This document shows positions 31,146 through 61,880 of a stretch of 64,000 nucleotides of DNA, in pieces. Made by a program: the position numbers and the translations under genes. Numbering within the stretch: the first letter of the stretch is position 1; the number at the start of each line of letters is the position of its first letter. The notes below the pieces were generated by a model. The model was not told where the DNA came from, made no database searches, and saw nothing but the letters and a program-made list of their open reading frames with translations. The stretch comes from a virus. The stretch covers positions 64,001 through 128,000 of IMG/VR virus record IMGVR_UViG_3300049571_000380; one strand, given 5' to 3'.

Positions 31146-32093
31146 TCAGGCTGTTCCCGTGGTTGCCGGGAGGAGGTACTTGTCCTCCCAGGCGTAGAGC
31201 AGGCTGTAGTACCTGCCGCCGAGGTGCCGGGCGCGATGTGGCCTAGGCAGCTCGGGGATGCACAAATGGTAGCAGTCCTCACCGTTTCTAGGGACGGGCG
31301 TCGCCGTGAAGATGTTCTCCTTCAAGAGCATTTCCGGGAACAGGTCGCGGACCCACTCCTGGCCGTAGACGTACGGCGCCAGCTCCACGTCCCGCTGACT
31401 CGCCATGCCCTGCCAGAACATCTGGTCCTCGCGCGAGCGCACCGACAGCGTGTCCAGGTCCGGGCCGACCGGCGTGAACTGCACCCCGCGCGACGGCTCC
31501 AGCAGGACCACTTTCGGGACGCCCGTGAGCCGGGACGCCATCGCCTCGGGTACGCCCTTGTCGCGGACGATGTCGGCGGCGAACAGGCGGAAAGCTGTAT
31601 CCCCGCGTGTCGCCGCCTCCAGGGCCAGGTGCACCACCCGCATGTCACAGGACCCGAGCACTCGCGTGGCCTGCATACCATCGGGCCGGACCATCCACTT
31701 CTGGCAGGTCGTCGAGGGCAGCTCGGTCATCTCCTCGAAGAAGGAGGAGCTGAAGAGCATCAGCGGGCTGAGCAGGGTCACCGCCGCCAGCCGACGCCGC
31801 CTGCTCCACCTGCGGCGGTTTACGTGGGCCCACCAGGTGAAGGAGAGGATCTGACCCCTCTCCACCGGGCTGTACACGTGGAGCAGATCGACGTCGGCCG
31901 GGTTGGTGTTGTACGGGCTGCGGAAGACGGTCCGGTTGGGGGCGTCCATGACGCGCTCCACGGCCCTCACGAGGTGCGGAAAGCGGTGCAGTGAGGGAAC
32001 GAGCGTCCTGGCCCGGGAGACGCGCTCCTGGGGCGTTCCGTAGCGGTCCCCGGGCGGCCTCCCCGGCGGGCGCCCGGTCGGCTTTCGGGCCAC
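31146..32093 (-). CDS. Hypothetical, probably DNA-binding protein
   Basis: AT-hook-like N-terminus RKPTGRPPGRPP; HTH-like VPEAMASRLTGVPK; in replication operon. Confidence 0.65.
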   Translation of the reverse strand: MARKPTGRPPGRPPGDRYGTPQERVSRARTLVPSLHRFPHLVRAVERVMDAPNRTVFRSPYNTNPADVDLLHVYSPVERGQILSFTWWAHVNRRRWSRRRRLAAVTLLSPLMLFSSSFFEEMTELPSTTCQKWMVRPDGMQATRVLGSCDMRVVHLALEAATRGDTAFRLFAADIVRDKGVPEAMASRLTGVPKVVLLEPSRGVQFTPVGPDLDTLSVRSREDQMFWQGMASQRDVELAPYVYGQEWVRDLFPEMLLKENIFTATPVPRNGEDCYHLCIPELPRPHRARHLGGRYYSLLYAWEDKYLLPATTGTA

Positions 32094-32105
32094 GCTTCCT
32101 CCGGG

Positions 32106-34391
32106 TCAGCTCCGTGCGATCGGTACGTACCGCACCCTTCCGCGTTCCATCGTCTTGTGAATCAGGCCCGCCTTGGCGAGCACATGCAGGTCCGATTCGA
32201 TGTCCCTCTCCTGGATCTTAGAGCGGAACCGTGAATAGATGTCCTGCTCCGTGACGCCCTCCTTCCGCGCCTGGATCGCGGTGAGGATTTCGTTCTGCCG
32301 GGCCGCCCATTCCGAGTGGAGAATCTTGCCCGCGACGCGCGCCGTCGAGCGGTACCACTCCTCGGTCAGGTGCATGGCCTTGAGCAGGTGCGGCATCCGT
32401 ACGATCTTCTCGCGCTCGGACATCGCGATGAGGACGGCCATCTTCATCATCGAGTCGCCCATGCGCGAGGTCGTGGGCAGCAGCACTTCGGCCAGTTCGT
32501 GCTTGTCGGCCGCCGCATACAGCTCCCACTTGGCCTTCTGGAGACGCCGCCAGGTCGGGTCGTCGAAGGGGATCATCACCGTGTCGCCCGGCTTGGTCTC
32601 CTCCATCCAGAAGGCCCGCGCGGCGAACATGTCGTTGAGCAGTCCCTGGCGCATCACGTCGTCGGCCGGGGTCTGACCGTCGAACTGCTCGGTGAACATG
32701 CCCTCTTCGGTCATCGGCGGCGGGTCGGCCTCTGCGATGAGGAATCGGGCCAGGTGGCCGGACTGGTAGTCGCCGATCGTCAGGTGTTCGGTGACCTGCT
32801 GGAGCGTGCCGCACAGGAACATCAGGAAGTTCGTACGGATGACCGATAGATCGCGGTCTTCGTGCTCCTTCAGGTTGCCCACGCGCAGGGCGATCCGGAC
32901 GCGGCCGGTGAACAGCTCCGTCATGTGTTCACGCACACCCGCCAGGTACCGCTTCGCGGCCTGCTCGTACAGCAGACCGTGCGCCTCGTCCCGGTAGAAC
33001 ACCGAGGAGCGGCCATTGCGGTCGGGGAGGATGACGCTCAGGGCTTCCGAGGTCACATCGGAACCCAGCAGGTACGGGAAGGTGTCGTTGGACAGCTCGT
33101 CCAGGAAGTCGACCCACATCATCATCGCGGTCGTCTTCCGGGCCCGGGTGGTCGGGCCGAGGATGAAGAACCAGAGCGTGAGGTTGGTGTCGAACTTCGT
33201 GGGGCACTTGCCGAACTCGCCCAGCACAGTGGACAGGACCGTCGCGGCGCCCGCCCGGTGGTAGCAGGACGGTGCGTCGGTGCGCGTCTCGGCCCACTGC
33301 TGGTACCGGTCGACGAAGGTGTCCATCGGAACCTTGTCGCGCTCCTCGGGCAGGAGGATGGACACGGCCTCGGCGAAGTCGGCGAGCTTCTTCTCCGGGT
33401 TCTCTTCGCTCTCGTCTGCCTCCTTGCGGAAGCCGATGTCGGAGAAGCTGTTGCGCTTGGGCTGGTTGTCGGGGTGGTCGTACGCCTTGCAGAGCTGCTG
33501 CCACAGCTCCTCTTCCGGCCGCCCGTCGATCTTGTACTTGTTGCACTTCGCCGACCACGCGATGTGCATGGCCGTGATGCGGGAGACGTTCAGCCGGGAC
33601 AGCAGGCTGAGCAGCTTCCACAGGGTCTTCGACCGGTCCTGGTCCGGCTTCAGGTCGGCCGCGTACAGGTCGTGGACCTCGGGGCTGGAGCGGAACACCT
33701 CGGCCGACTCGCGGATCGACTGCTGGGAGAAGTACCAGTCGCTCTTCGGCGGCATGTCGCTGGCGACGCTCGGCCGGTCCTGAGTGCTGTAGGGCGGATA
33801 GACGCTGGCCAGCGCCTTCATCGTGTACGTGGCGCCCATCTTCGGCTGGGGTACCTGCCAGCGCGGGCGGCCGTGCCGGGAGTACTTGTTGTTCGCGGTG
33901 CCCGGCACGCGCAGAAGCTGGCCAGCATCCCAACCGCTGGGGTCGCAGCCGTCGCGGGTGTGCTCGGAGGCGATGGCCCGGGAGATGTCGATGAGCTGCT
34001 GCGGATCGTCGGTCTCGGTGACCCAGTACAGGTGATGGCGCCCCTCGGACGTCTCGACCGCCATCGTCGGTTCGACCTTCAAGCGATCCAGGGGCAGCGT
34101 GTCGGCGTCGGCGTAGGCGGCCCACTGGTGGGCGATGTTGCCGCCCTTGCGGCTGCTCCGGGTGCGGAACAGGGCGGGCACTGTGTAGACGTCCTTGTCG
34201 CTGCTGCCCAGGCAGAAGGCAACGAGGTCATCCCGCTGCGAGGGCCACGCGAAGAAGGTGGTCTGCGTCGGGCCCGTCTTTTCATCCGGGTCGTACACGC
34301 CGCCCGGGAACAGTGAGATCGCGACGAAGCCCAGATCCTTTCCGTCGTCGTTGTTCTTCGGAAAGAGGGTGTCGAAGAAGACGAAGCTCAC
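32106..34391 (-). CDS. Primase-helicase (RepB-type primase plus DUF3987-like ATPase and wHTH)
   Basis: AYADAD, VETSEGRHHLYW, WDAGQLLRVPGT; Walker A-like GPTTRARKTT, FYRDEAHG. Confidence 0.85.
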   Translation of the reverse strand: MSFVFFDTLFPKNNDDGKDLGFVAISLFPGGVYDPDEKTGPTQTTFFAWPSQRDDLVAFCLGSSDKDVYTVPALFRTRSSRKGGNIAHQWAAYADADTLPLDRLKVEPTMAVETSEGRHHLYWVTETDDPQQLIDISRAIASEHTRDGCDPSGWDAGQLLRVPGTANNKYSRHGRPRWQVPQPKMGATYTMKALASVYPPYSTQDRPSVASDMPPKSDWYFSQQSIRESAEVFRSSPEVHDLYAADLKPDQDRSKTLWKLLSLLSRLNVSRITAMHIAWSAKCNKYKIDGRPEEELWQQLCKAYDHPDNQPKRNSFSDIGFRKEADESEENPEKKLADFAEAVSILLPEERDKVPMDTFVDRYQQWAETRTDAPSCYHRAGAATVLSTVLGEFGKCPTKFDTNLTLWFFILGPTTRARKTTAMMMWVDFLDELSNDTFPYLLGSDVTSEALSVILPDRNGRSSVFYRDEAHGLLYEQAAKRYLAGVREHMTELFTGRVRIALRVGNLKEHEDRDLSVIRTNFLMFLCGTLQQVTEHLTIGDYQSGHLARFLIAEADPPPMTEEGMFTEQFDGQTPADDVMRQGLLNDMFAARAFWMEETKPGDTVMIPFDDPTWRRLQKAKWELYAAADKHELAEVLLPTTSRMGDSMMKMAVLIAMSEREKIVRMPHLLKAMHLTEEWYRSTARVAGKILHSEWAARQNEILTAIQARKEGVTEQDIYSRFRSKIQERDIESDLHVLAKAGLIHKTMERGRVRYVPIARS

Positions 34392-34431
34392 CCGCGCCCC
34401 TCCCTTTCTCGTGCGACTTTCCGGACGCAGA

Positions 34432-34461
34432 ACGGGCGGGACCCCGGAAGGCCCCGCCCGT
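34432..34461 (-). terminator. Hairpin between SSB-like gene and primase
   Basis: ACGGGCGGG...CCCGCCCGT inverted repeat. Confidence 0.5.
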
Positions 34462-35755: not shown

Positions 35756-36985
35756 TCAGGCACGGAGGGAGTTGACGATGGATTCCAGGTGGAGGCTCAG
35801 CGGCGCCGAGGCGTCGCCATGGCTCACCACCTCGTCTCCCTTGCCCGCTTCGCGCGCCGCCTCCTGGACGGCGTAGATGCGGGAGATCTTGTCGTCGGTG
35901 GACAGGCTGTCGTCCCCGACAGTGCGCTCGGCCCAGTCGGCGAGCTGCTGCGGCGAGCCCTTCTCGGCCGCCTTGCGGGCGGCGTCGAGCATGGCCTTCT
36001 GCTTCCGGCTGCCGCCCTTGGTGACGTCGATGACCTCACCGTTGATCGGCACGCCCTCCTCGGTCACCTCGGCCCCCAGCTCTTCGGGGGTGTAGGCGGC
36101 GGAGGCCATGGCCAGGTGGTCGTGGTCGTCCTCGGAGAGGGACAGGCCCATCTCGCCGAGGATGTTCTTGACGCCGAGGATCACGTCGATCGCACCGTCT
36201 CGCACCACACCCGACTTGGCCCGGCTCTTCAGCATCTCGGGGCCGTAGTTCTGCCAGGTGCTCTTCGAGTTGAGGCCGATCTGGTTGGCTCGCGCCATCG
36301 ACCACACCGACTCGAACCGGACCAGCTTGGCCAGATCGAAGTTCGTGGTGGCGACGGACTCGCGCAGCTCGTCGAAGTTGTACTGCCCGTGCAGAGCGGC
36401 GAGCTGCTTGCGCAGGGCCGCGATCTCCTCGGGAGACGCCTTCTCGTCGAACTCGGCAAGGGCTCGGAGGTCTTCGATCCTCTCCAGGATCTGCCCGCGC
36501 TGCATCTTGTACAGGCGGTCCATGTCTTCCAGCCGGGCCAGCTTCTGGCGCCGCTCCTCCTCGCGCATCTTCTGGAAGCGCTGGAGGTCTTCGTCGGACG
36601 TCTTGCGCACCAGCACGGCGGTCGCCTTCACGGCGTTGCCCTCGATGTGCACGGTGTGCCCGGCGGCGACGGCGAGCGCCTGCATCAGGTGGGCGCTCAT
36701 GCCCGCCTTCAGGCGGCCCTTGCCGTCGGGGAAGACGAAGATGTGCTGGAAGGAGGACATCGGGTCGATGCCCAGGGCGGCACCGAAGCGCATCATGTAC
36801 TCGGCGGAGGCTGCATCACCTGCGATGTGCTCCGGCATCAGCTTCGACTTCGACAGCCGCGCTGCTTCGGCGGGATCCACCTCGCCGGTCGTACGACGGA
36901 CAAGCTCAGTCATGCGTGCCTCGTTTTCAGTGCTTGTTCTTGTGTCGTTTTTGGTTCGCGTGGCGTCGTGTTCTTGTGTCTCCAC
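35756..36985 (-). CDS. RecT/Redbeta-like single-strand annealing protein with a coiled-coil insertion
   Basis: GAALGIDPMSSFQHI...AHLMQAL...GH; WSMARANQIGL...WQNYGPEMLKSRA...YTPEELG. Confidence 0.8.
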   Translation of the reverse strand: METQEHDATRTKNDTRTSTENEARMTELVRRTTGEVDPAEAARLSKSKLMPEHIAGDAASAEYMMRFGAALGIDPMSSFQHIFVFPDGKGRLKAGMSAHLMQALAVAAGHTVHIEGNAVKATAVLVRKTSDEDLQRFQKMREEERRQKLARLEDMDRLYKMQRGQILERIEDLRALAEFDEKASPEEIAALRKQLAALHGQYNFDELRESVATTNFDLAKLVRFESVWSMARANQIGLNSKSTWQNYGPEMLKSRAKSGVVRDGAIDVILGVKNILGEMGLSLSEDDHDHLAMASAAYTPEELGAEVTEEGVPINGEVIDVTKGGSRKQKAMLDAARKAAEKGSPQQLADWAERTVGDDSLSTDDKISRIYAVQEAAREAGKGDEVVSHGDASAPLSLHLESIVNSLRA

Positions 36986-36996: not shown

Positions 36997-38832
36997 TTAG
37001 CCGCGCAGCCTAGGCCGAATCGAGCAGGGGAAGCACTCGGGGTGCGGAGCCAGCTCGTTGATCTTGCCCGTGCGCACGAGAGATGCCAGGTGAGCGGCCC
37101 GATTGATGACGCCCTGGGCCACGTCGGGCCGGTAGGCGCACGAGGCCACCCAGATGTCACTCACGTTGTTCGAGTCCCGGGGGATGAACGCGAGGACAGC
37201 GTAGTCCGCTTCCCGCCCCATCGCCCGCAGTCCGTACAGGTACAGCATCGTCTGGCCCATGTACTCCGACGGCACGCCGCCCGAGTGTTCCTCGGACCGG
37301 GACATCAGCATGACCATGCGACCCAGGTCCGCCTCAGTGAGCAGGCCACCCCGGTCCATCGCCTTGAGCTTGGTCAGCTCCTCGCGTTCCGGGGCGGTGA
37401 GCCCGTGGACGTAGGCACCGGGACCGGCCTGCGTCTGGTACTTCTTCAGCTTCTTCAGGTCGGTCGTGTTGTGCGTGACGACCATCCCCTTCGTGCACAG
37501 GTACGTACTGTCGGGGGAATCTACCTTTATGCACTGCGTCGGAACGGTCTCGATGGGTTCCACCGACTGAATCAGTCGCTGGCCGCCCCGAACTTCCGAG
37601 GTCACGTTCACGCGGTCCGCTTTCACGGAGGACAGGAATGGATTGAGCCCCCCCACAGGGGTGAAGGAAACCATGTAGGCGGTCACCTCCCTTCCGAATC
37701 CCCTACGCCGTACGACGTTGAACGCGGCCCGCTGCCCCAGGCCGACCAGCAGTTCGTACACCGACTCGGCCAAGGCCCGATCGGTGACTTCGAAAACGGC
37801 CTTGCGGCGCGTCTTGTTCCAGGTTCCATCGGTGTCCATGAGACCTCGCAGCAGGTCGAGACGCTGCTGTCGCGAGGCGCGAAGGTAGGCGGCTGGAACG
37901 AACTTCCGGTCGGCCACACCACACTCCTTGAGGAGTCCGATCAGGCCGCGCACGGTGCGTGTTGGTGAACCCTTTTCGGCCGTACCGGCATCGGCCGGTC
38001 CGACGTCGAATCCACGCTCCTGGATGTGCTGGAACATCTCGTCGTCAGGCTTGCTGATGCGGCCCGTGCCCACCGACCCGTCACCGAGCCAGCAGCCGAG
38101 GACGTACGGGTCGACCGGGAGCTGTACGTTGGTCAGTTCCAGTGGCTGGGCGTTGACGATCCGGTATCGGCTCTGGCCGTTGCCGAGCTTGAGGGTGTTT
38201 CTGATCTCTTCGGTGCTGAGCACCTTAGAGACCGCACGGTTTCCGCTACCGGAAACGACAGCCCACAGATGCTCGTTGTCGGCTACCACCGTCTGACCGT
38301 CGTCGAAGGTGATGAGATAGCAGGGACGGTGGTGGATTTCCGACTTGCCGAGCACCTTGCACGGCTTGCCGTCAGACCCGATGAGCAGGTCACCCGTCTG
38401 CACGTCACCCATGGTCGTCCATCCGGTCGGCGTCGGGAGGGGAGTGTCCAGCGCTAGCCCCTTCCAGTCGACCAGGGTCTTCTTGCGCGGCAGGAAGACG
38501 TCCACGTGACCGCGCACCAGGCCGATGCCCGGAATCTGGGCCACGTCCACGGTGATCTCCTGCTCGGCGTGGGCGTACACGGCGGGCAGATCGCGCTCCA
38601 GCTTCTCGTGCACCGCAGTGCCGAGCCACGCCTTCAGGCTGAACCCCCGTTCGGTGTGGGAGCCCATGCCCAGCGAGGCGGCGATCTTCCGCGCCACGCA
38701 GAGGTCGCACTTGTCGGCGAGGTCGCTCGGCCCGGGGGCCCGTTGCTTGTCGCGCGCCGAGGGTCGGGTGATGGTGGCCACCGCGATTCCCTCGACGAAA
38801 GTGCGAATATTTTCCTGGTCTTCTGCTGTCAT
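36997..38832 (-). CDS. Cas4/RecB-like PD-(D/E)XK exonuclease, intein-containing
   Basis: PSDLADKCDLC, GTAVH, E...GHVD...VDWK|TT, QTMLY, C-terminal CFPC. Confidence 0.85.
   Translation of the reverse strand: MTAEDQENIRTFVEGIAVATITRPSARDKQRAPGPSDLADKCDLCVARKIAASLGMGSHTERGFSLKAWLGTAVHEKLERDLPAVYAHAEQEITVDVAQIPGIGLVRGHVDVFLPRKKTLVDWKGLALDTPLPTPTGWTTMGDVQTGDLLIGSDGKPCKVLGKSEIHHRPCYLITFDDGQTVVADNEHLWAVVSGSGNRAVSKVLSTEEIRNTLKLGNGQSRYRIVNAQPLELTNVQLPVDPYVLGCWLGDGSVGTGRISKPDDEMFQHIQERGFDVGPADAGTAEKGSPTRTVRGLIGLLKECGVADRKFVPAAYLRASRQQRLDLLRGLMDTDGTWNKTRRKAVFEVTDRALAESVYELLVGLGQRAAFNVVRRRGFGREVTAYMVSFTPVGGLNPFLSSVKADRVNVTSEVRGGQRLIQSVEPIETVPTQCIKVDSPDSTYLCTKGMVVTHNTTDLKKLKKYQTQAGPGAYVHGLTAPEREELTKLKAMDRGGLLTEADLGRMVMLMSRSEEHSGGVPSEYMGQTMLYLYGLRAMGREADYAVLAFIPRDSNNVSDIWVASCAYRPDVAQGVINRAAHLASLVRTGKINELAPHPECFPCSIRPRLRG
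37468..38460 (-). mobile_element. Class 3 intein (331 aa) with LAGLIDADG homing endonuclease
   Basis: Starts GLALDTPLPTPTGW, block B ADNEHLW, block C LGCWLGDGS, block E LRGLMDTDG, block F VPTQCIKV, ends VTHN followed by Thr. Confidence 0.92.
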
Positions 38833-47825: not shown

Positions 47826-47826
47826 C

Positions 47827-49477: not shown

Positions 49478-49786
49478 CTACTCGGACGGAGGGCCGTACT
49501 TGTCGGTCCACTCCGCGATCAGTTCCTCGTGCCGCTCTTCGTCCCGGAGCTTCATCAAGGCGTAGTCGCCGAAGCCCTTGCCGGTGCCGTTGTCCCTGCG
49601 GATTTCGACATAGACCCGCAGGCGCTTGTCCCCCTCCGCGTACTCCGCCTTGACGACCTTGTCCAGGGCGGAGTTTTCGTCGGGCGCTTCGACGGTGACC
49701 TCGTCGTGCTCCAGATCCTTGATCTTCATCTTGTTGCCCAGCAGGGGCATCCTTCGGCGCATCACGCGCACGGTGTATTTGGCCAT
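49478..49786 (-). CDS. Hypothetical protein
   Basis: TGATG coupling with NlpC/P60 gene. Confidence 0.6.
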   Translation of the reverse strand: MAKYTVRVMRRRMPLLGNKMKIKDLEHDEVTVEAPDENSALDKVVKAEYAEGDKRLRVYVEIRRDNGTGKGFGDYALMKLRDEERHEELIAEWTDKYGPPSE

Positions 49787-50385
49787 CAGGCAACCCTCGT
49801 AGCTCCGAAGTAATCAGACATGTAGTGCACGTCGTTGACGCGGATTTTCGTGCCGGTGCGCGGCGCGTGAAGCATCTTGCCATCGCCGATGTAGATGCCC
49901 ACATGGTGAATGGATCTCCAGTTCCCCTTCTGGCCGAAGAACACCAGATCGCCCGGCTTCAGTTCGCCCCAGGAGGGGTGGTTGTTCGTAGTCCTGTACT
50001 GGTCGTTGGCCACGCGAGGGATCTGGATGCCCGCCTTCGCGTATGCCGCCTGGGTGAGGCCGGAGCAGTCGAACCGCCCACCCTGCGCAGCCGTGCCTTC
50101 GCCGCCCCAGAGATAGGGGACTCCGATCTTCGTGCGGGCGTACGCGATGGCCGTGGCCGCCGCGTTGCCGGACCTGGAGCTGGACACCTTCGAGTCCTGC
50201 TCCTGTCGCTTCGCCTCCTTGGCCCGCTGCTCCGGCGAGTACCAGTTGATCTTCTCGATCTCGGGGTTGGGGTTCGCCGTGGCGTTCGAGATCGGGGCCG
50301 CGTTCAAGGCGGCGCAGGACGACGTGACGGGCACGAGCAGCGCCACGGAGGCGACCGCCAGGGCCGCTCGCTGGGTCCGGTTCAC
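49786..50385 (-). CDS. NlpC/P60 peptidoglycan hydrolase, probable lipoprotein
   Basis: Signal VTSSC; GVPYLWGG, FDCSGL, PGDLVFF, HHVGIY. Confidence 0.92.
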   Translation of the reverse strand: MNRTQRAALAVASVALLVPVTSSCAALNAAPISNATANPNPEIEKINWYSPEQRAKEAKRQEQDSKVSSSRSGNAAATAIAYARTKIGVPYLWGGEGTAAQGGRFDCSGLTQAAYAKAGIQIPRVANDQYRTTNNHPSWGELKPGDLVFFGQKGNWRSIHHVGIYIGDGKMLHAPRTGTKIRVNDVHYMSDYFGATRVA

Positions 50386-51017
50386 TGCTCGTACTTCCTC
50401 GTCTTCTGCTCGATCATCTTCACGTAGGTGTAGGTCTCGCACTTGGCGAAGGAGCACGGCGGGACGCCGTTGTACTCCTTCACCCGGAAGCCGCCCGCGT
50501 TGTATCCGGCGAGCATGTTCTTCCAGGTGGGGCCGGGTATGTCCTTCAACCCTTTCGCCAGCTTGCAGTCCAGGGACGCGGCGGACGGAATGGCGTCATC
50601 GGGGTCGTACTTGTTCCGCTTGCCGTCACCGTCCGCATCGATTCCCTCAGTGGCCCACGTGCTGTCGATGAACTGGGCCATCCCCTTGGCCGAGGCCGGG
50701 GAGTCCTGGCGGCCGTCGATGACCTCGGGCTTGAACCCCATGCTTTCCTGGTCGAGCTGGGCCGCCAGGAGGGCCGGGGTGAGCGTCGGGCAGAGGTTGC
50801 CCCACTTGTTGATCAGGTCTTCCCAGCGCTTCTTCGGCACCGATCCGGGCTTGATCGGGGCAGAGGTGCCCGTGAACTTGTAGTCCGCGTCGGCCTTCTG
50901 CTTCGGGGGTGCCACGACGGACGAGGCAGACGGGACAGCCGGAATGAAACCGGTGACGGCCTGAACCGCACCCACCGCGAAAAAGATGCCGACGAATGCT
51001 CCGCCTGCTCTGCGCAT
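50382..51017 (-). CDS. Secreted lytic transglycosylase (SLT-like)
   Basis: N-terminal signal; LAAQLDQES, SAKGMAQFIDSTW, DPDDAI, LAGYNAG, ETYTYV. Confidence 0.9.
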   Translation of the reverse strand: MRRAGGAFVGIFFAVGAVQAVTGFIPAVPSASSVVAPPKQKADADYKFTGTSAPIKPGSVPKKRWEDLINKWGNLCPTLTPALLAAQLDQESMGFKPEVIDGRQDSPASAKGMAQFIDSTWATEGIDADGDGKRNKYDPDDAIPSAASLDCKLAKGLKDIPGPTWKNMLAGYNAGGFRVKEYNGVPPCSFAKCETYTYVKMIEQKTRKYEQ

Positions 51018-51042: not shown

Positions 51043-51069
51043 ACTCTAACATTGACCTAGGCCAGTCAA
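51043..51069 (-). promoter_or_regulatory. Promoter/operator: GACCTAGGCC inside a TTGAC...GTCAA inverted repeat, -10 TAGAGT
   Basis: TTGACCTAGGCCAGTCAA at 51052-51069, upstream of the transglycosylase operon. Confidence 0.65.
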
Positions 51070-51957: not shown

Positions 51958-52920
51958 TCACCAGGCGGCGCCCGGTGCGTAGAGCAGGATCCCCGTGACG
52001 ATCGACGCCAGCGGGATCATGAGCACGGCGTGGAAGATGCCCGGCCCCATGCTCTGGGACTTCTCGCGCTCTTCCTCCGACATGGCCGACCGCTCACGGT
52101 TGAGCCGTTCGATCCGATCGAAGGCCCACATGGTCGCGTAGAACGCCATGCAGAACAGACCGGCGACCCAGAACTGCCACACCTGGAGGGTCCACGGCGA
52201 GCCGAAGATCGCCGTCACCTCGTCGGGGTACGCGACCCCCACGAAGAGGAGGACCGGAATCAGCCAGGCAGAATGCGTCAGCCACCTGATGCTGAAGGCG
52301 ACCATCCGCCCCCGGTACGTGCTCTGGGCCAGGTATCCGGCGACCTGATTCCGGATGAACATCAGGATCATGGGGGTGAGCCCCATGATCGCCGCCCAGA
52401 TCAGGCTGCCGAACCGGTCCGACTCGTACGCCATGCCGATCGTGTCCCTGAACCACCTGCCAGGGCCGTTCAGGATTCCCCATTCCGTGGTCGAGGTGCC
52501 GAAGCGGATTCGCTCGTACAGAGCGGTCAGAATCTGCGGTCCGACAGCCCACGACATCACCGAGGAGATCATGAACGAAGTGACGTACGGCCGGGTCTTT
52601 CCGTTGGCCGGGTCCAGTCCGTTCTTGATGGCGGCGGCTGCCGCCTGAACGGGCTTCATCACTTCGGCCGCGAGCTTCTTCTCCTCTGCGACCTTTTCCT
52701 TGACAGGGGCCAGGATCTTCTCGGCCTCCTGGCGTACCTTTTCCTTCTTCTCTTCCGCCTTGCCCTGACTCTCGGTCCACCGGGTGGTGGCCGAACCGAG
52801 CTTCCCCTTCAGCTTCTTGAGGTCGCCCTTCAGGGTTCGTGGCGGCTTCCGCTTCTGGCCCTTGAGGTGCACGGTGGGGGCCTTCGTCGGCTTCGGCGGA
52901 ATGGCTGCCTTCGTCGCCAC
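51958..52920 (-). CDS. Multi-pass membrane protein with Lys-rich N-terminus
   Basis: Basic coiled N-terminus followed by about 5 TM segments. Confidence 0.7.
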   Translation of the reverse strand: MATKAAIPPKPTKAPTVHLKGQKRKPPRTLKGDLKKLKGKLGSATTRWTESQGKAEEKKEKVRQEAEKILAPVKEKVAEEKKLAAEVMKPVQAAAAAIKNGLDPANGKTRPYVTSFMISSVMSWAVGPQILTALYERIRFGTSTTEWGILNGPGRWFRDTIGMAYESDRFGSLIWAAIMGLTPMILMFIRNQVAGYLAQSTYRGRMVAFSIRWLTHSAWLIPVLLFVGVAYPDEVTAIFGSPWTLQVWQFWVAGLFCMAFYATMWAFDRIERLNRERSAMSEEEREKSQSMGPGIFHAVLMIPLASIVTGILLYAPGAAW

Positions 52921-52935
52921 GTTTCTCCTTCCGTG

Positions 52936-53100
52936 TTACGGCTTTCCATCGGAAGCGAGTCCGATGTTGGCCTCTACGGTTGCCTCCAACCGAGCGATAT
53001 CCTGGTTGGCAGCGAAGTCAGAAAGCTGCCCCAGAGAAGCCTCCGGCACGTGCTGATCCTGCTGCACAACCGGCTCCTGAACCTCCCCGTTACCTTCCAT
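52936..53100 (-). CDS. Small acidic protein (54 aa)
   Basis: ATG after GAGAGGG; first gene downstream of the operator. Confidence 0.45.
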   Translation of the reverse strand: MEGNGEVQEPVVQQDQHVPEASLGQLSDFAANQDIARLEATVEANIGLASDGKP

Positions 53101-53154
53101 GTCGCCCTCTCTTCGGTCCCTGCTGGCGTTGTGGAGTCCAGCATGACACAATAC

Positions 53155-53164
53155 GGCCTAGGCC
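53155..53164. promoter_or_regulatory. Operator palindrome GGCCTAGGCC between divergent genes
   Basis: Perfect 10-bp palindrome just 3' of a CACAAT -10-like box and 23 bp before the GntR start. Confidence 0.75.
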
Positions 53165-53187
53165 ACAAGCGCAGACGAGGAGAAAGA

Positions 53188-53922
53188 GTGAGCGAGCAGA
53201 TTCCCAAGTACCGTGCCATTGCGGCACATTACCGATTCAGGGTCACGTCCGGGGAGCTGGAGCCCGGTACCCCGCTGGAGTCTCGCCGGAAGCTCGCGAA
53301 GATCCACAAGACCTCGCGAGTCACCATCGACAAGGTGGTGGAACTGCTGACGGCCGAGGGGATCCTGGAGCCGTCGGACGGCAATCGGCCTCCGATCGTC
53401 GCCGACATCTCGCGTCGCACCGCGACCGTTCAGGACCGCGTCGGCAACGCCGCCGTCAGCGGTCGGGCGCTGGGGGCGAAGGAGACTTCCCGGATCCTGC
53501 GAGTGGAGGAAGTTCCCTGCCCCTCCGACATTGCCCCTCTCCTGGGGGTGCGGCCCGGTGACAAGGTGATCCTGCGGGAACGCCTGAACCTGGTCGAGGA
53601 CAAGCCGGTGGCCACGGGTCACTCGTACTACCCGCCGGAGGTCACCAACCTGACGCCGGAGCTGCGGACCCCGCAGTCCATCCCCTCGGGTTCGCGCGAA
53701 TTGGCGGCCGAACGGATGGGGTCGCGCCAGAAGGATCTGATTCCGGTGATCACGTCGCGCCTGGCGACGGACCGAGAGAGGGAACTACTGGAGCTGAAGG
53801 GTGCGTACGTGGTCGTCACGCAGACGGCACGCCGGATCCTCCTGGCCAACGGCAAGGTCGTCGAGGTCGCAGTGAAGATCTGCGAGGGCAACCGGCCGGT
53901 CTCGTTCCACGTGCCCCTGTGA
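53188..53922 (+). CDS. GntR/HutC-family repressor (wHTH plus UTRA), KorA/TraR-like
   Basis: PKYRAIA...GELEPGTPLES.R.LA...SRVTI...L..EGIL; UTRA RERL...DKPV..GHSYYP; GTG after GAGGAG; isolated plus-strand gene. Confidence 0.92.
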   Translation: MSEQIPKYRAIAAHYRFRVTSGELEPGTPLESRRKLAKIHKTSRVTIDKVVELLTAEGILEPSDGNRPPIVADISRRTATVQDRVGNAAVSGRALGAKETSRILRVEEVPCPSDIAPLLGVRPGDKVILRERLNLVEDKPVATGHSYYPPEVTNLTPELRTPQSIPSGSRELAAERMGSRQKDLIPVITSRLATDRERELLELKGAYVVVTQTARRILLANGKVVEVAVKICEGNRPVSFHVPL

Positions 53923-55962: not shown

Positions 55963-55980
55963 CACTGCGGTGCGGGCGTG

Positions 55981-57144
55981 TCAGCCCTGGTTCATCCAGC
56001 TCGCGAGACCGTTCTCGACGAACCACTCCAGCGGGAAGGCGGTGGTCGCCTCGGTCACCCGGGGGGCGCCCGTCTGGTTGGCCTTCGCGAAGGCGGCCTT
56101 GGTGATGCCGCCCTCGGCCGCGTCGGCGGCGTAATAGCGCGCCGCCAGGTTCACCTTCCGGCGCTCGGCGTCGGTCAGGTTCAGGCCCTCCAGGCTGATG
56201 CCCTCCGCGTCGTCCTCCCCCTCGAAGGAGACACCGCCCTTGGCGAGCTGCGGCCGGGGGCTGGAGACGACCTGGCCCTGCACCAGGTTGAAGCCGAGGG
56301 GCGACCGCAGGCGGATGTCCTGCTCGGCGTCCATGCGCTCCATGGTGATCTCGGTCTGGGTGCGCATCGTCTCGATCTGGAGCTGGGCGTTCAGCCGCTG
56401 GCGCATCGCCTTGAGCTGGTTGGCGCCCTCCAGCTCGGCCTTCTCCGCCTCGAACTTCGCGTCGCGCTCCAGCTTCTCGCGCTCGATCTGGGCCTGGACC
56501 CTCTCGCGCTCGATCGCCGCCCTGCGACGCTCCTCGGCCAGGGCCGCCTCGTGCTCGCGGTTCTTCAGGATCATGTCGGCCTCGTGCTGCTCGGCGGTCG
56601 CCTCGGCGTCGGCCCGCGTGAGGCGGGACTTCCGCTTCTTCGCCGCCATCTGGGCCTTCTCCTCGTCCGTCAGGTCCGTCGGGTCCTTCAGGCCGTTCAG
56701 CGCCATCGTCCACGTGAGCTTCGTGAAGACCGGGAGCACCGCCGCGAAGGCCGCCGCACCGCCGCCGATCGTCGTTCCGTGGTAGCCGAGCAGGGCCGCG
56801 ACGAACAGGGCCTCGACCCACCCGATGACCGGGAGGAAGTCGAAGGGCTTCTTCCGCCTGGGCAGCTTGCCCATCAGCTTCTGACCCTGGTACTGGGCCA
56901 CCATCGTCGCGCTCCAGACGACGTCCATCGTCGCGGCGGCCGAGAGGGAGATCAGGCTGAGCCCGCCCAGCTTGTCGATGGTGAGCGCGTCGACCTTGTA
57001 CAGGTCGATGAAGGACCAGGTGCTCCAGGCGAGGGAGCCGATCGAGAGGATGCTCGCCATCAGAACCAGAACGGAGAAACGCTTCGGTCCGTCCTCGTCG
57101 GTGTCGACCTTCGCGACCTTCTCGGTGTTTTCCGTCGTGTCCAT
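55981..57144 (-). CDS. SpdB-like Streptomyces plasmid spread protein (4 TM plus coiled coil)
   Basis: LAWSTWSFIDL...AAATMDVVW...IGW...LLGYHG...AAVLPVFTKLTW, then long coiled coil. Confidence 0.65.
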   Translation of the reverse strand: MDTTENTEKVAKVDTDEDGPKRFSVLVLMASILSIGSLAWSTWSFIDLYKVDALTIDKLGGLSLISLSAAATMDVVWSATMVAQYQGQKLMGKLPRRKKPFDFLPVIGWVEALFVAALLGYHGTTIGGGAAAFAAVLPVFTKLTWTMALNGLKDPTDLTDEEKAQMAAKKRKSRLTRADAEATAEQHEADMILKNREHEAALAEERRRAAIERERVQAQIEREKLERDAKFEAEKAELEGANQLKAMRQRLNAQLQIETMRTQTEITMERMDAEQDIRLRSPLGFNLVQGQVVSSPRPQLAKGGVSFEGEDDAEGISLEGLNLTDAERRKVNLAARYYAADAAEGGITKAAFAKANQTGAPRVTEATTAFPLEWFVENGLASWMNQG

Positions 57145-57210
57145 GTCTGGGTTTCTCCCTTTCCGAAAACCCCCCGGTTTCTGAAACCTCGCTTGGGGGC
57201 GTTACGCATG

Positions 57211-57240
57211 ACTGTGCCAGCGTGGCCTAGGCCGTGTCAA
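57211..57240 (-). promoter_or_regulatory. sigma70-type promoter with operator in the spacer
   Basis: Minus strand TTGACA-N18-CACAGT with GGCCTAGGCC at 57224-57233. Confidence 0.75.
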
Positions 57241-57408
57241 GCGAACCTGGGCCGGATCCCGGAAGTAGTCCGTTCTGTCCGAATTCACTGGGATTCGAGA
57301 ACGATGCCACGAACTGCCGCCCCACCATGTCCCCATTCGTCCGATTCGAGTGGAGAAGGACCACCCTTCGTTCGGCCTCTTCCGGAGGGGCGGCAGCTCT
57401 TCCGCGCT

Positions 57409-57840
57409 TCAGGAAGAACGGGATCCACGGAAGAGGCCACGAAGGAAGCCCTTCCGCTCGCTGCGATGCCGTCCGGAAGGGGCGGGAACCTCGCCGGAAA
57501 CCTGGTGACCAGCACCATCGGGATCGTCTGCCTCGATTCGTCCGGTTTCGTCTTCCAGAACCCACTCGGAAGGCGGTTCGATCGCGGTCATGTTCAGCAC
57601 GTAGACGTTCGCCCCGCGAAGCCCGGTGGAAGAGAAGCCCGGCTCCGTACGCAGCAGTCCGTTCCGGGTGAGTTCGGCCCTGGCCCGCACCAGGGCGCCC
57701 TGGGTCAGTCCGCTGTCCTTGAGGAGGGCGGATGTCGCCACCTGGGCCCGCCCGATTTCGTTCACGTGCTTCAGTAGGGCATCCAGCAGCTTTCCTGCCT
57801 CGTGGCCCAGTGCGCTTCGGTCGTAGGCGTTCTCGCTCAT
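57409..57840 (-). CDS. Winged-helix DNA-binding protein
   Basis: ATSALLKDSGLTQGALVRARAELTRNGLL...GANVYVL. Confidence 0.7.
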   Translation of the reverse strand: MSENAYDRSALGHEAGKLLDALLKHVNEIGRAQVATSALLKDSGLTQGALVRARAELTRNGLLRTEPGFSSTGLRGANVYVLNMTAIEPPSEWVLEDETGRIEADDPDGAGHQVSGEVPAPSGRHRSERKGFLRGLFRGSRSS

Positions 57841-57943
57841 GCCGTCACCTTTCCAGTGGTCCGTGTCGGGCATCAGCGTACGGCGAAGGGCCGCCAGAAC
57901 ATCGTCTGGCGGCCCTTCAGGTAGGCCATCTCTGGTGGCCTGG

Positions 57944-59392: not shown

Positions 59393-59472
59393 GACCTCCT
59401 CATCTCCTCTCCGAGTGGCCCGCCGGAGCCGTTCCGGCGGGCCGTTTCCACTGCTTCTCGCAGGCCACTTTT

Positions 59473-59718
59473 TCAGCGTTCCTGGACCCACTTCTTGGGG
59501 TCGTTGTGCTCCTCCCAGGAGGGGACCACGATGCGGTCCCCGTACCTGGTGTACCCGATGTGCGTACCCGGCGGGATGAGCCGGTTGCCCGCCGACAGGC
59601 CGCCACAGGAGAGGCAGGGATCGCCCTCCAGGCGGCCGTGTTCGCAGCGGTGCAGGTCGAGCAGGAGCTTGGCCAGACGGCTCGTCTCGACCTCCTGCGG
59701 GGTCGGCCGGTCAGCCAT
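59473..59718 (-). CDS. Small protein with HRCEHGR...CLSC motif
   Basis: Operon packing; metal-binding motif. Confidence 0.55.
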   Translation of the reverse strand: MADRPTPQEVETSRLAKLLLDLHRCEHGRLEGDPCLSCGGLSAGNRLIPPGTHIGYTRYGDRIVVPSWEEHNDPKKWVQER

Positions 59719-59920
59719 GAACGGCTTCCGTGGTCCGCTCCGAAACGGGCGAATCGGTGCGAACTCCCTTGAATTCCGTGCAGGCGCAGGTCCCCCGCCC
59801 CTGGGCCAGCTTGTGACGGCACGCCGTCTTGGTACCCCGGACGTGCGTACCGGTGTGCTCGTGCCGGGGGTGGCCGCAGCCACTGGGACCCGTGCACAGC
59901 TCCTTGTCGTAGAGGCTCAT
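59711..59920 (-). CDS. Small Cys/His-rich protein
   Basis: C...CGH...H...C...CAC..F; RBS GAGGAGG. Confidence 0.6.
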   Translation of the reverse strand: MSLYDKELCTGPSGCGHPRHEHTGTHVRGTKTACRHKLAQGRGTCACTEFKGVRTDSPVSERTTEAVHG

Positions 59921-59942
59921 CGCTCCTCCTCGTTCCTGCTGG

Positions 59943-60218
59943 TCAGCGCTTCTGCGCCATCTCGTTCAGCGTTGCCGACAGCTTCGCATTCAGATCCAGC
60001 GCCTGCTCGTACGTCAGCTCGGCGAAGATGCCCGGGTCGTCGGACTCCTCTATCTGCTTCTCCGACAGGGGTACGTGCATCCGGGTGCCGAACCCCGTCT
60101 CCACGGGGCCGAGGCCACCGATCCTCACGTAGCTGCCCGGGGTCCAGCTCTCGCGGACCTGGAGCCGGGCACCCTTGTCGGCCTCGCTCAGGTTCTTCAG
60201 GGCCTTGATCTCGCTCAC
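59943..60218 (-). CDS. Hypothetical protein
   Basis: GTG after GAGGAGAAGG; GTGA overlap. Confidence 0.6.
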   Translation of the reverse strand: MSEIKALKNLSEADKGARLQVRESWTPGSYVRIGGLGPVETGFGTRMHVPLSEKQIEESDDPGIFAELTYEQALDLNAKLSATLNEMAQKR

Positions 60219-60544
60219 GCCTTCTCCTCGTCCGACCAGGTGTTTCCCTGGTAGTCCTTGTGCTCCGTGGCCGGGTGGTGCCCCTTGGGCTCCTCGCACT
60301 GCCACGGATTCACGGGGTGCTCGCCGTCGCACTTCTCGACGTTGCCGTGCTCGGCCATGGCCTCACGGATGATCGAGTCCTCGTCGAGGCCACCGACCCC
60401 ATAGCCCTCGGGGTCCCAGCTCTCGGCCTTGAGCGCCTTGATGAGGGCGGAGACCAGCTCGGTGCCGGAGATCTCGCCCTCCTCGCGCTGTTCGATGGCC
60501 TCGGACACCGTCTCGAAGATCCGGGTTCCGCCGGTCCAGCTCAC
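60215..60544 (-). CDS. Hypothetical protein
   Basis: MSWTGG...LIKALKAESWD; RBS AAGGGAG. Confidence 0.6.
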   Translation of the reverse strand: MSWTGGTRIFETVSEAIEQREEGEISGTELVSALIKALKAESWDPEGYGVGGLDEDSIIREAMAEHGNVEKCDGEHPVNPWQCEEPKGHHPATEHKDYQGNTWSDEEKA

Positions 60545-60608
60545 GCTTTACTCCCTTCCGAAGGTTCTTACGAGGGTTCGCCCTGGAATCCAAGGCGAAC
60601 CCTCATCG

Positions 60609-60827
60609 TCATACCGTCTCTACGCGGGTGACGTGGGTGTAGACAGCCTGGTAGATCTCACGGACGTCCTCGGCGTCCACGTCGTCGAGTTCCACCAGGA
60701 CGGTGTGGTGCTCGCCCGTCACGTCGGTGCACGGCAGGCCGTTCACCGGGCACGGGCCGGTCTTCTTGTCGCGTGGGTTGTGCTCCGGGTTCTTCGGGAG
60801 CTTGACCGTGACCAGGTACTTCGCCAT
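60609..60827 (-). CDS. Small protein with H...C...C...H motif
   Basis: TGATG coupling with NlpC/P60 gene. Confidence 0.6.
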   Translation of the reverse strand: MAKYLVTVKLPKNPEHNPRDKKTGPCPVNGLPCTDVTGEHHTVLVELDDVDAEDVREIYQAVYTHVTRVETV

Positions 60828-61294
60828 CAGCCGTTGATCCTTCCGAGGTAGACCTTCCGGCCGCCGTACTTGTACTCGGAGACGGGGGCGACGACGACCT
60901 TGTACCCCCGGTAGGAGCCGGAGTTGGCGTTCAGGATCTTGTCGCCGCCGACATAGATGCCCACGTGCTTGATGTTCGAGGATGAGGTGCCGAAGAAGAC
61001 CAGGTCGCCCTTCGCACGCTTGCTCCAGGAGAGCTTCGAGGACTTGTTGTACTGGCCCTGAGCGGTGCGCGGGAGCGTCTTGCCGTTCTTCTTGTACGAG
61101 TAGTACGTGAGGCCCGAGCAGTCGAAGGCGTTCGGACCGGCGGCGCCGCCCTTGTAGGGGTCCCCCTTCTGGGCGGTGGCCGTACTCAGGGCCTTCGTGC
61201 GTATCGGGGTCGCCGCACTGGAGCTGGGGGCCACGGTCAGCACCAGCCCTCCCGCGAGCGCGGTGGACAGGGCGACGGTCGTGAGCTTCTGCAT
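60827..61294 (-). CDS. Second NlpC/P60 hydrolase, secreted
   Basis: Signal peptide ...SSSA; GDPY..G, FDCSGL, GDLVFF, HVGIY. Confidence 0.92.
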   Translation of the reverse strand: MQKLTTVALSTALAGGLVLTVAPSSSAATPIRTKALSTATAQKGDPYKGGAAGPNAFDCSGLTYYSYKKNGKTLPRTAQGQYNKSSKLSWSKRAKGDLVFFGTSSSNIKHVGIYVGGDKILNANSGSYRGYKVVVAPVSEYKYGGRKVYLGRING

Positions 61295-61354
61295 GGTGCG
61301 ATCTCCTTGGATTCCGAGGTTCTTCCGGATGTTCGGGCTGGAATTCGAGCCGAA

Positions 61355-61819
61355 CTACCAGCTCATTCCTTCGGGGCTGAAGTAGACGGGGATGCCTGCC
61401 GCTCGCGCCTTGTCCACGCAGTCAGCGGTGCCATGCGTGGGGTGCTCGCCGGGCAGGCACCAGGGGGCGTTCTTGCGGCAGGGGAGCGCCCAGGCCATCA
61501 GGGCGTCCATACCGGCGTCGACCATCTCCTGGTTGCGCAGGAAGCCAGCCTGGTTGCCGTGGCGCCCCCAGTCGGCCGGGTGCGGGTCCTCAAGGACCAG
61601 GTGGTCCGGGAGCCGGGCCGTCCAGTCGCTGACGTGCCGGTCGACCCCCCGCTTGGCCTTGCCGTTTCTCACGAGCAGCCGCTTGCGGTGCCGCAGCATC
61701 TGCGTGAGCGGGATCCATACGGACGACCTGGTGGCCCAGTCCCTGGACCCGGCCACCCCCAGAACGAATCGGGGGTTGGCGCTCAACCATGCTGCCAGTT
61801 CGGCATCTTGGGCGTTCAC
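61355..61819 (-). CDS. SLOG-superfamily protein (DUF2493/YspA-like)
   Basis: VAGSRDW, G.A..GVD, ADWGRHGNQAGFLRNQEMV, HGTADCV..AR.AGIP. Confidence 0.85.
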   Translation of the reverse strand: MNAQDAELAAWLSANPRFVLGVAGSRDWATRSSVWIPLTQMLRHRKRLLVRNGKAKRGVDRHVSDWTARLPDHLVLEDPHPADWGRHGNQAGFLRNQEMVDAGMDALMAWALPCRKNAPWCLPGEHPTHGTADCVDKARAAGIPVYFSPEGMSW

Positions 61820-61835
61820 GTGCCTCCTCTCGAAC

Positions 61836-61880
61836 GGCCTAGGCCGATCCTACCCGATGGCCTACTTCTCAGGTAGGCCA
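61836..61880 (-). promoter_or_regulatory. Operator GGCCTAGGCC (61836-61845) next to -10 TAGGAT, plus split half-site inverted repeat
   Basis: Palindrome between -10 box and RBS; TGGCCTAC-N7-GTAGGCCA at 61858-61880. Confidence 0.7.

Follow-up and report, generated by a model that had tools for sequence, protein, structure and literature searches.

A dre-like palindrome as the probable operator of a phage-encoded HutC-type GntR regulator in a relative of Streptomyces cluster BM phages

In cluster A mycobacteriophages many dispersed short sites, the stoperators, serve one phage regulator; the sites are asymmetric and lie within transcribed regions, the phages are temperate and their immunity repressor belongs to a family other than GntR. 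Regulators of the HutC type, such as DasR of Streptomyces and NagR (YvoA) of Bacillus, join a GntR winged helix to a UTRA domain and target sugar-use genes. The HutC operator consensus, NyGTMTAKACNy, is a palindrome with four nucleotides between GT and AC (PMC4494728), and in the NagR–DNA structure base-specific reading is limited to G-5, G-4 and G-7 of the dre site, which are read by Arg38, Arg48 and Gly69 (PMC4333415). The Kor-type GntR proteins of Streptomyces conjugative plasmids and AICEs (KorSA of pSAM2, KorA, TraR and SCO3932) are described as likewise of the HutC type, with control over their own gene and over several promoters of the mobile element, and with a membrane or 'spread' operon transcribed divergently from them (PMC8584621, PMC4494728).

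The window analysed here, 64,000 nucleotides of viral DNA, comes from a 192-kb phage genome whose relatives include JustBecause and Satis, two Streptomyces phages of cluster BM. A sequence-only reading of the window had proposed that a plasmid-type GntR repressor acts through dispersed CTAG-centred palindromes on transfer and replication genes, in place of a CI-type repressor. The regulator in question is encoded as follows.

53188..53922, plus strand: gntR, a 244-aa GntR/HutC regulator (winged helix plus UTRA), with PF00392 and PF07702 above cut-off

The winged helix occupies residues 8-65 (PF00392, 30.3 bits with the cut-off at 27) and the chorismate-lyase-like UTRA effector domain residues 96-236 (PF07702, 53 bits against 23.8). 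The nearest solved structures are NagR/YvoA and DasR, and the alignment to NagR/YvoA and to 3eet is full length; the product thus belongs to the HutC subfamily, as had been proposed. A six-frame search found no second GntR gene in the genome, and gntR is the only plus-strand gene within a leftward block of ~36 kb.

Alignment of the sites refined the motif to a 12-bp palindrome, YGRCCT|AGGYCR. Counting the motif and CTAG across the genome, a check that the sequence-only reading had itself proposed, gave 15 strict copies in 192,484 bp against 0.05 expected from third-order Markov simulations, and about 19 when the ends were relaxed. All 15 strict copies are intergenic and conserved, 23 of 25 CCTAGG cores are intergenic in a genome whose intergenic share is ~14% (P ~4e-18) and, ribosome-binding-site words aside, the palindrome is the top enriched intergenic word. 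CTAG itself is indeed scarce, with 12 occurrences in the window versus 92 +/- 9 in shuffles and 51 in the whole genome versus ~114 expected, 20 of the 51 lying in the context RCCTAGGY. The palindrome is therefore real and under selection, and the set of candidate operators spread over many promoters holds up. The candidate operator sites in the window, with the genes and putative promoters around them, are these.

53154..53165, palindrome: operator CGGCCTAGGCCA of the gntR promoter, 2 nt past the -10-like CACAAT; the GTG start follows after 23 nt, and 54 nt separate the site from the divergent gene
53147..53152, plus strand: -10-like CACAAT, preceded by TGA and kept in all aligned relatives; putative -10 of the gntR promoter
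51958..53100, minus strand: divergent genes encoding proteins of 54 aa and 320 aa, the latter with three hydrophobic segments, sharing the 53155 operator region
57223..57234, palindrome: operator TGGCCTAGGCCG within a leftward promoter, in the spacer between its -35 and -10
57240-57235 and 57216-57211, minus strand: -35 TTGACA and -10 CACAGT of that promoter
55981..57144, minus strand: 387-aa membrane protein, weakly SpdB-like, with two hydrophobic segments; first gene after the 57224 operator
61835..61846, palindrome: operator CGGCCTAGGCCG, 1 nt past the -10; the GTG at 61819 follows after 16 nt
61852-61847, minus strand: -10 TAGGAT of the 61836 promoter
61355..61819, minus strand: SLOG/YAcAr-like (DprA-like) 154-aa protein (PF10686 at 27.1 bits, just below the 28.2 cut-off; phrog_289)
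60827-61294: NlpC/P60 hydrolase, after the SLOG-like gene
51053..51064, palindrome: operator TGACCTAGGCCA in a promoter spacer
51072-51067 and 51048-51043, minus strand: -35-like TTGTTG and -10 TAGAGT of that promoter
51132-51101: terminator hairpin upstream of the 51054 operator promoter
50382-51017, minus strand: SLT lytic transglycosylase (PF01464)
49786-50385, minus strand: NlpC/P60 hydrolase (PF00877)
37006..37017, palindrome: operator CAGCCTAGGCCG on a -35 region, overlapping the 3' end (last codons) of the upstream exonuclease gene
36989-36984, minus strand: -10 TAGAGT of the 37007 promoter
35756..36913, minus strand: RecT-like annealing protein (phrog_4171, E 7e-8; JustBecause annotation)
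32106-34391: primase/helicase, following a gene for a 416-aa protein downstream of the RecT-like gene
31239..31250, palindrome: doubtful site TGGCCTAGGCAG within coding DNA, 110 nt ahead of an inserted endonuclease gene (30219-31130) and polA

Perfect GGCCTAGGCC palindromes lie at 53155, 57224 and 61836 and 9/10 matches at 31240, 37007 and 51054, where they had been reported, and the positions given relative to promoters and genes are right for all three perfect sites and for 51054. The site at 37007 lies ~93 nt, not 20 nt, ahead of the RecT-like start at 36913. The 9/10 match at 31240, by contrast, falls in codons 282-285 of the gene at 31146-32093, is present in JustBecause but lost in Satis, and has no promoter hexamers visible around it. 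A weak site claimed at 10467 (ATCCTAGGTC) was rejected as an operator; the 12-bp sequence there (CATCCTAGGTCA, 10466..10477), in an 830-bp non-coding region, is not conserved in JustBecause. The calls of the SLT, RecT-like, endonuclease and SLOG-like genes hold. The spdB-like call is weakly supported: the 387-aa protein itself matches no Pfam family, but shows homology (E 1e-33) to proteins with a weak SpdB_N match in relatives. The divergent 54-aa and 320-aa proteins match no Pfam or PHROG family, and the SLT and NlpC/P60 genes at 49786..51017 open a long leftward operon.

Of the seven sites listed by the earlier reading, five are retained wherever a relative covers them: four in as many as 14 relatives and 37007 in two (JustBecause and Satis). 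Orthologous sites are kept in JustBecause, Satis, seven IMG/VR relatives and others, while the flanking intergenic DNA diverges. The block CAGCATGACACAAT(A/T)CGGCCTAGGCCACAAG at the gntR promoter is invariant in 10 genomes, GCTTGACACGGCCTAGGCCA at the 57224 promoter is conserved in 10, and the 61836 operator is kept in nine, Satis having a GGTC variant; at the 51054 promoter the -10 drifts as TAnnnT among relatives and the operator stays constant. A strict E. coli-type promoter scan found no hexamers, and those listed above were deduced from conservation across relatives. Relative to the TAnnnT -10, the solid sites lie 0-8 nt downstream, in the spacer or over the -35, and about six directly abut the hexamer. 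This placement is operator-like rather than promoter-like, because the distance to the -10 varies.

How does the phage pair compare with DasR and NagR? The protein has the same architecture, and its Arg34, Arg44 and Gly65 align with NagR Arg38, Arg48 and Gly69, so that it has both of the arginines that read guanines and the glycine of the wing. The palindrome is dre-like in its 12-bp length, its CTAG centre, its G-G at -5/-4 and the 6 bp between recognition blocks; among half-sites, G occupies -5 in 34 of 38 and a purine -4 in 37 of 38. The likeness to the DasR site seen in the earlier reading was thus well judged, the phage operator being a close variant of the DasR/NagR dre core. Set against the HutC consensus, the palindrome and the MTAK centre (here CTAG) match, whereas GT/AC is replaced by RC/GY in 19 of 19 sites; this lack of the pairs that define the consensus counts against assigning the operator to the phage GntR. 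The base concerned is -3, C in the phage and T in dre, and in its recognition helix the phage protein has Asp in place of the third arginine (NagR Arg52, DasR Arg62). Among phage homologs Arg44 is present in all and position 34 is His in the 43%-identical one, so both arginines are largely kept, and the phage clade retains SR-x-T-x-D-K/R.

The motif is inherited together with the gene. The palindrome stands 30-120 nt before gntR in homologs of 70-90, 64, 49, 46 and 43% identity, and in one homolog of 42% identity the site, TGGCCCGAGCCA, is degenerate. The gntR promoter is the one palindrome position kept in all relatives. Outside phages, the nearest homologs are GntR genes of 158 plasmid records (131 from Streptomyces), 38-42% identical over 93-97% of the length, and one in an integrated element with a Prim-Pol and a serine recombinase. 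Because these nearest relatives belong to small Streptomyces plasmids and an integrated element, the label 'plasmid-type' was fair. Their upstream palindromes are of another type, however: GCTAGTACTAGC in the plasmids (pSM17C, pZL12) and CGCTACCAGTAGCG in the integrated element. The recognition helix of the aligned integrated-element and chromosomal homologs also differs from that of the phage protein, with His or Gln at the position of Arg44, and across these alignments operator type changes together with the recognition helix between clades. The SCO3932 site, AC[TC]T[AG]TT[GC][TG][GT]ACG, is likewise unlike YGRCCT|AGGYCR, and a candidate regulon of ~19 promoters in a 190-kb virus is unlike that of the Kor-type plasmid/AICE repressors. 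A Kor (kil-override) repressor would be expected to silence a lethal transfer or spread (kil) gene such as traB or spd; here one operator precedes the gene for the weakly SpdB-like membrane protein. The claimed control of transfer genes is not supported, in that the FtsK-like gene at 140.1-141.5 kb of the genome has no operator ahead of it and the nearby site lies 3' of the gene.

Taken together, these comparisons make the phage GntR the best candidate to bind the palindrome, and we consider it probable that this HutC-type protein (53188-53922) uses YGRCCT|AGGYCR as its operator in an autoregulated repressor regulon. The steps that we infer, from GntR binding and repression to ligand and biological timing, are as follows. 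Each 12-bp site would be bound by one GntR dimer, Arg34 and Arg44 reading G-5 and R-4 of each half-site with the 6-bp spacing of dre sites, and the clade-specific Asp48, at the position of the third arginine of DasR and NagR, may select the C at -3 that distinguishes the phage operator from host dre, TGGTCTAGACCA. Every solid site overlaps a host-type promoter core, whether at the start site just past the -10, within the spacer or at the -35, so binding should block RNA polymerase. GntR would repress its own gene through the site 2 nt past its -10, together with about 15-19 leftward operons; the palindrome promoters head leftward non-structural operons and the sole GntR gene. The predicted regulon comprises a tRNA cassette and numerous small early genes, besides the genes for recombination and replication proteins, cell-wall hydrolases and the SpdB-like membrane protein, and the rightward virion gene blocks would lie outside it. 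Unlike DasR and NagR, the regulator is phage-encoded and its candidate targets are phage promoters. A small molecule presumably binds the UTRA domain and releases the repressor, which may make the phage's gene expression responsive to a metabolite of the host. The ligand probably differs from that of NagR, because in our reading of the alignment only three of the six phosphate-sugar contact residues of NagR are identical. BM-like genomes carry 15-23 promoter-embedded operators each, which with the conserved GntR/HutC regulator would constitute a testable global control circuit for these phages. The wide regulon is documented only for the BM-like group, because in the most distant relatives, covered by 20-kb loci, hardly any copy of the motif lies outside the gntR promoter. 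Repression of replication operons is puzzling in a phage without lysogeny genes, and counts against a repressor regulon.

It could be argued that the GntR is a master repressor of the lysogeny type, replacing a CI-type protein, that keeps lytic and 'transfer' genes silent while the phage resides, probably episomally, as a prophage, and that confers immunity. Two NCBI Streptomyces isolate assemblies contain BM-like contigs of 185 and 253 kb, the former with a major capsid protein at 89% identity and a gntR followed by a ParA/MinD-family ATPase gene; this near-complete relative raises episomal persistence of some phages as a question. The plasmid and integrated-element homologs and the operators on replication and recombination promoters favour the same view. 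Against it, a phage contig in an isolate assembly could equally reflect chronic infection or contamination, and the complete 192-kb genome lacks integrases of both the tyrosine and the serine type (PF00589 and PF00239 match nothing in it), as well as a partition gene and any homolog of the ParA of the 185-kb contig. Cluster BM phages, which are large and poorly understood, were isolated as plaque formers (PMC10652959, PMC6687918), and the announcement of one member reports no integrase and no repressor and regards a temperate lifestyle as unlikely (PMC10652959). Substitution for a CI-type repressor, as the sequence-only reading had it, is not supported by these data, and we regard the lysogeny-type interpretation as unlikely. 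Cluster A stoperators resemble the phage sites in that one regulator would use many dispersed short sites tied to non-structural arms, and differ from them in that the phage sites are palindromic and on promoters in a phage without lysogeny genes.

A bolder proposal, which we hold to be rather improbable, is that BM-like phages are not simply lytic: a metabolite-sensing GntR, derived from a plasmid kil-kor system and using a dre-like operator insulated from DasR, would shut off ~19 early and middle promoters and permit persistence in the mycelium as an episome or in a carrier state until a metabolite signal arrives. Some relatives have partition genes in the gntR operon. If true, this would be a metabolite-gated switch between lysis and persistence in phages said to have no repressor.

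Returning to autoregulation by the phage GntR, the palindrome might instead be bound by a different phage DNA-binding protein, for example a small helix-turn-helix protein near the helicase genes, with GntR having another or narrower target. The phage does encode several other small helix-turn-helix proteins that could bind the palindrome, a point against GntR; several such genes are annotated in JustBecause and Satis, and an HTH_26 gene beside a UvrD-like helicase is conserved in all relatives. The conservation of the gntR promoter site across all relatives, the fit of the motif geometry to HutC-type recognition with both arginines conserved, and the covariation of operator type with the GntR recognition helix make this quite improbable.

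Binding by a host HutC regulator such as DasR would couple early phage transcription to the N-acetylglucosamine state of the host and leave the phage GntR a competitor or irrelevant. The phage site matches the dre core at 10 of 12 positions and retains G-5 and R-4, in keeping with NagR, which reads only G-7, G-5 and G-4 base-specifically (PMC4333415). The GT/AC hallmark is nonetheless replaced in every phage copy and, in the 9.5-Mb Streptomyces assembly that contains the 185-kb contig, that contig accounts for 23 of the 29 motif copies and the ~9.3 Mb of chromosomal contigs for six, whereas dre-type cores occur on the chromosomal contigs and are absent from the phage. By these counts the palindrome has no host regulon, and control by DasR appears very unlikely. 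The phage pair may exemplify a shift in HutC specificity, through one half-site base and an Arg-to-Asp change in the recognition helix, that would insulate the phage GntR from the host DasR regulon; for Streptomyces engineering, repressor and operator might together provide an orthogonal switch.

Finally, that the palindrome is no protein operator but an intrinsic part of the promoter or start site, an element of an RNA leader or a remnant of CCTAGG restriction-site avoidance is highly implausible, for although some sites abut the -10 and CTAG is avoided in general, the position ranges from over the -35 to 8 nt past the -10 and hence is not that of a fixed promoter part, the spacer and -35 sites are untranscribed, a perfect palindrome of 10 nt is unable to fold into a stable hairpin, and avoidance fails to explain 15 conserved, wholly intergenic copies where 0.05 are expected.

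Three perfect copies of GGCCTAGGCC and three further copies with nine of ten matching positions, reported in a sequence-only reading of the window, were all recovered at their positions when the DNA was searched again, and CTAG, described there as scarce, does occur in the window only 12 times compared with 92 +/- 9 in shuffled sequences. Across the whole genome 51 CTAG tetranucleotides are present against ~114 expected, and 20 of the 51 lie in the context RCCTAGGY. The consensus derived from both halves of 19 aligned sites is a 12-bp palindrome, Y-G-R-C-C-T/A-G-G-Y-C-R, in which half-site position -6 is invariably a pyrimidine, -5 is G in 34/38 and -4 is a purine in 37/38. Genome-wide there are 15 strict copies of the 12-mer, while third-order Markov simulations give 0.05, and 23 of the 25 CCTAGG cores are intergenic even though intergenic DNA makes up only ~14% of the genome (P about 4e-18). 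Indeed, once ribosome-binding sites are set aside, the motif is the top-enriched intergenic word, and the genome of the Streptomyces phage JustBecause likewise contains 19 CTAG-centred copies. Two other identities for the palindrome were rejected: the AdpA box, TGGCSNGWWY, is mismatched at position 7, and an RNA hairpin would have no loop, several of the sites lying outside transcribed DNA.

The 192,484-bp virus record, of which the window represents bases 64,001-128,000, is rated complete by CheckV. The 12-kb stretch at 50,000-62,000 is ~78-79% identical to JustBecause and Kela, and is also related to Satis, Kradal, EhyElimayoE and Quantum; these phages are cluster BM siphophages of ~185 kb with prolate heads (PMC6687918). 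That the region is plasmid DNA at the nucleotide level was ruled out, as a megablast search of 12 kb of the window against plasmids returned no match. From ~27.5 kb to the end of the window at 64 kb nearly all genes are on the minus strand, thus transcribed leftward, and encode replication and recombination proteins, cell-wall hydrolases and many small proteins; the single gene of opposite orientation in this block, at 53188-53922, is gntR. The solid copies of the motif all precede leftward non-structural operons, gntR itself or, in one instance, a small gene that points rightward close to the end of the genome, and none was found within the rightward virion gene blocks. Five of them, in the window, define the following predicted units.

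Predicted operators in the window and the units that they head
61836, SLOG-like and NlpC/P60 unit
57224, unit headed by the gene for a weakly SpdB-like membrane protein
53155, gntR and the divergent membrane-protein genes
51054, long unit of SLT, NlpC/P60 and helicase genes
37007, RecT-like and primase/helicase unit

Outside the window operators lie upstream of many small leftward genes and of a tRNA cassette. The five sites listed are those that stand from an original seven, since the site at 31240 is within coding sequence and absent from Satis, and that at 10467 is not conserved in JustBecause. The proposal of a multi-promoter operator set that includes replication genes holds, an operator heading the RecT-like and primase/helicase unit, although the site at 37007 is ~93 nt upstream of the RecT-like start and not ~20 nt as first described. 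Control of transfer genes is not supported; no operator precedes the FtsK-like gene, and the likeness to SpdB is only weak and indirect, the 387-aa protein itself having no SpdB match in Pfam at E <= 1.

In alignments of up to ten genomes the sites appear as invariant islands that adjoin conserved TAnnnT (-10) and TTGnnn (-35) blocks, and the combined site and promoter blocks are often directly downstream of a terminator hairpin. It should be emphasized that the promoters were inferred from these conserved blocks and not from a strict scan for E. coli-type promoters, which found none between 50.5 and 62.5 kb. At 61836 and 53155 the site begins 1-2 nt past the -10, and eight sites outside the window start 0-8 nt past it; at 51054 and 57224 the site occupies the promoter spacer, while at 37007 and at genome position 140072 it overlies the -35. 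Because the offset from the -10 differs between sites, their placement argues for a repressor operator over a fixed promoter element. Just upstream of the 61836 promoter all relatives also display a conserved hairpin, GTGGCCTACC...GGTAGGCCAC (window 61850-61900 and orthologous positions), which probably terminates the unit before it.

The palindrome is located ~30 nt upstream of gntR in all relatives whose GntR is 64-90% identical, and is retained 44, 50 and 50/121 nt upstream of the gene in homologs of 49, 46 and 43% identity, respectively, despite unrelated flanking DNA. In a homolog of 42% identity the corresponding position holds a degraded version, TGGCCCGAGCCA. In contrast, plasmid pSM17C (41%) and the phage-plasmid pZL12 (38%) contain GCTAGTACTAGC ~90 nt before their gntR and not the phage palindrome, whereas an integrated-element homolog has CGCTACCAGTAGCG in its place; the aligned integrated-element and chromosomal homologs have His or Gln at the position of Arg44 and lack Asp48. 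In these comparisons the predicted operator type changes with the GntR clade, be it phage, plasmid or integrated element. A 9.5-Mb Streptomyces isolate assembly that includes a 185-kb BM-like contig (major capsid protein 89% identical) serves as a natural control. The phage contig bears 23 of the 29 copies in the assembly, so that the host lacks a regulon of this motif, which favours a phage-encoded binder; the dre-type cores, the operators of DasR (Streptomyces) and NagR/YvoA (Bacillus), are on non-phage contigs.

Some relatives contain a second GntR/UTRA paralog adjoining gntR (loci L017:11023-11781 and L022:10807-11541), also indicated in L011 and L012 by their repeats; upstream of the paralog are repeats of its own, ACTAGCTCGCGAGC ... 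GTACTAGCTCACGA, in which the TACTAGC half resembles the plasmid-type palindrome. The phage studied here lacks this paralog. In locus L018, from a distant relative whose GntR is 43% identical, gntR is directly followed by a fatty-acid/polyketide-like gene set (10875-15479 and 18880-19520) comprising KAS III, a short-chain dehydrogenase, an acyl-CoA oxidase, an acyltransferase and a carrier protein, and in L016 (3448-6129), from another relative, an intein that contains a LAGLIDADG endonuclease domain splits the UvrD-like helicase.

The genome has a single GntR gene, gntR, and its 244-aa product combines a winged helix of the GntR type with a UTRA domain, each exceeding its Pfam cut-off; it can therefore be assigned from its sequence to the HutC subfamily, as originally proposed. 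Full-length matches to PDB sequences identify NagR/YvoA and DasR as its closest solved relatives. In the crystal structure of NagR bound to its operator only Arg38, Arg48 and Gly69 make base-specific contacts, to G-5, G-4 and G-7, the last through the wing, and six base pairs separate the two recognition blocks (PMC4333415). A HMMER alignment places Arg34, Arg44 and Gly65 of the phage protein at these three positions, and the phage half-site retains G-5 and R-4 of the NagR operator with identical spacing. The phage core, TGGCCTAGGCCA, departs from the dre core, TGGTCTAGACCA, at -3 and +3 only. DasR and NagR use a third arginine, Arg62 and Arg52, respectively (PMC13191281), which in the phage protein and all aligned phage homologs is replaced by Asp48; we infer that this replacement accompanies the T-to-C change at -3. 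Only three of the six sugar-phosphate contact residues of NagR align as identical in the phage GntR, while a block at approximately residues 164-178 (SIPSGSRELAAERMG) is kept even in integrated-element and chromosomal homologs. Thus, the UTRA ligand probably differs from that of DasR and may be one that the plasmid regulators also bind.

In the most likely mechanism the promoters would be open when the phage enters, and GntR, supplied from its own promoter, would build up until it shut off the non-structural operons along with that promoter, a putative UTRA ligand modulating the repression. The sequence-only reading had gone further, placing GntR as a master regulator in place of a CI-type repressor. 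Two Streptomyces isolate assemblies do contain BM-like contigs, of 185 and 253 kb. In one, GCA_024295805.1 from Streptomyces sp. NEAU-Y11, a near-complete BM-like phage genome forms its own 185,382-bp contig, in which gntR is followed by genes for a ParA/MinD-family ATPase and a 309-aa protein (locus L021:10001-12676), an arrangement that hints at episomal carriage. The genome studied here, however, encodes neither a tyrosine or serine integrase nor a homolog of the relative's ParA, and a BM announcement reported no integrase or repressor and considered a temperate lifestyle unlikely (PMC10652959). The replacement of CI and superinfection immunity are thus ideas and not findings, kept in play by the two contigs and by the order of gntR and the ParA/MinD-family gene in one of them.

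The components of the proposed autoregulatory GntR circuit, a HutC repressor, a palindromic operator and autoregulation, are of known kinds. Neither the BM papers nor the other literature searched mention the motif or a GntR regulon; a search with the 10-mer returned only unrelated papers, and one for phage-encoded GntR repressors nothing comparable. What is new is the setting, a global regulon of ~19 sites in a 190-kb phage thought to be repressor-less, together with an operator one step from the host's dre.

Next to polA one gene differs from the relatives.
30219-31130, minus strand, endonuclease gene matching phrog_681 and, more weakly, an HNH family, between polA and the upstream gene
As JustBecause and Satis lack this gene at the corresponding place, it is likely to be a homing-endonuclease insertion. 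The leftward block is separated from the rightward virion genes by an 830-bp non-coding region (10026-10858) with long blocks conserved in JustBecause; this region could harbour an origin or non-coding RNAs. Intergenic DNA also contains another repeated element, GAG(A/G)CGCCCTAGGG(T/C), which is distinct from the operator and occurs at genome positions 27420, 29078 and 41101, all ahead of the window start, directly past stop codons and followed by GC-rich hairpins.
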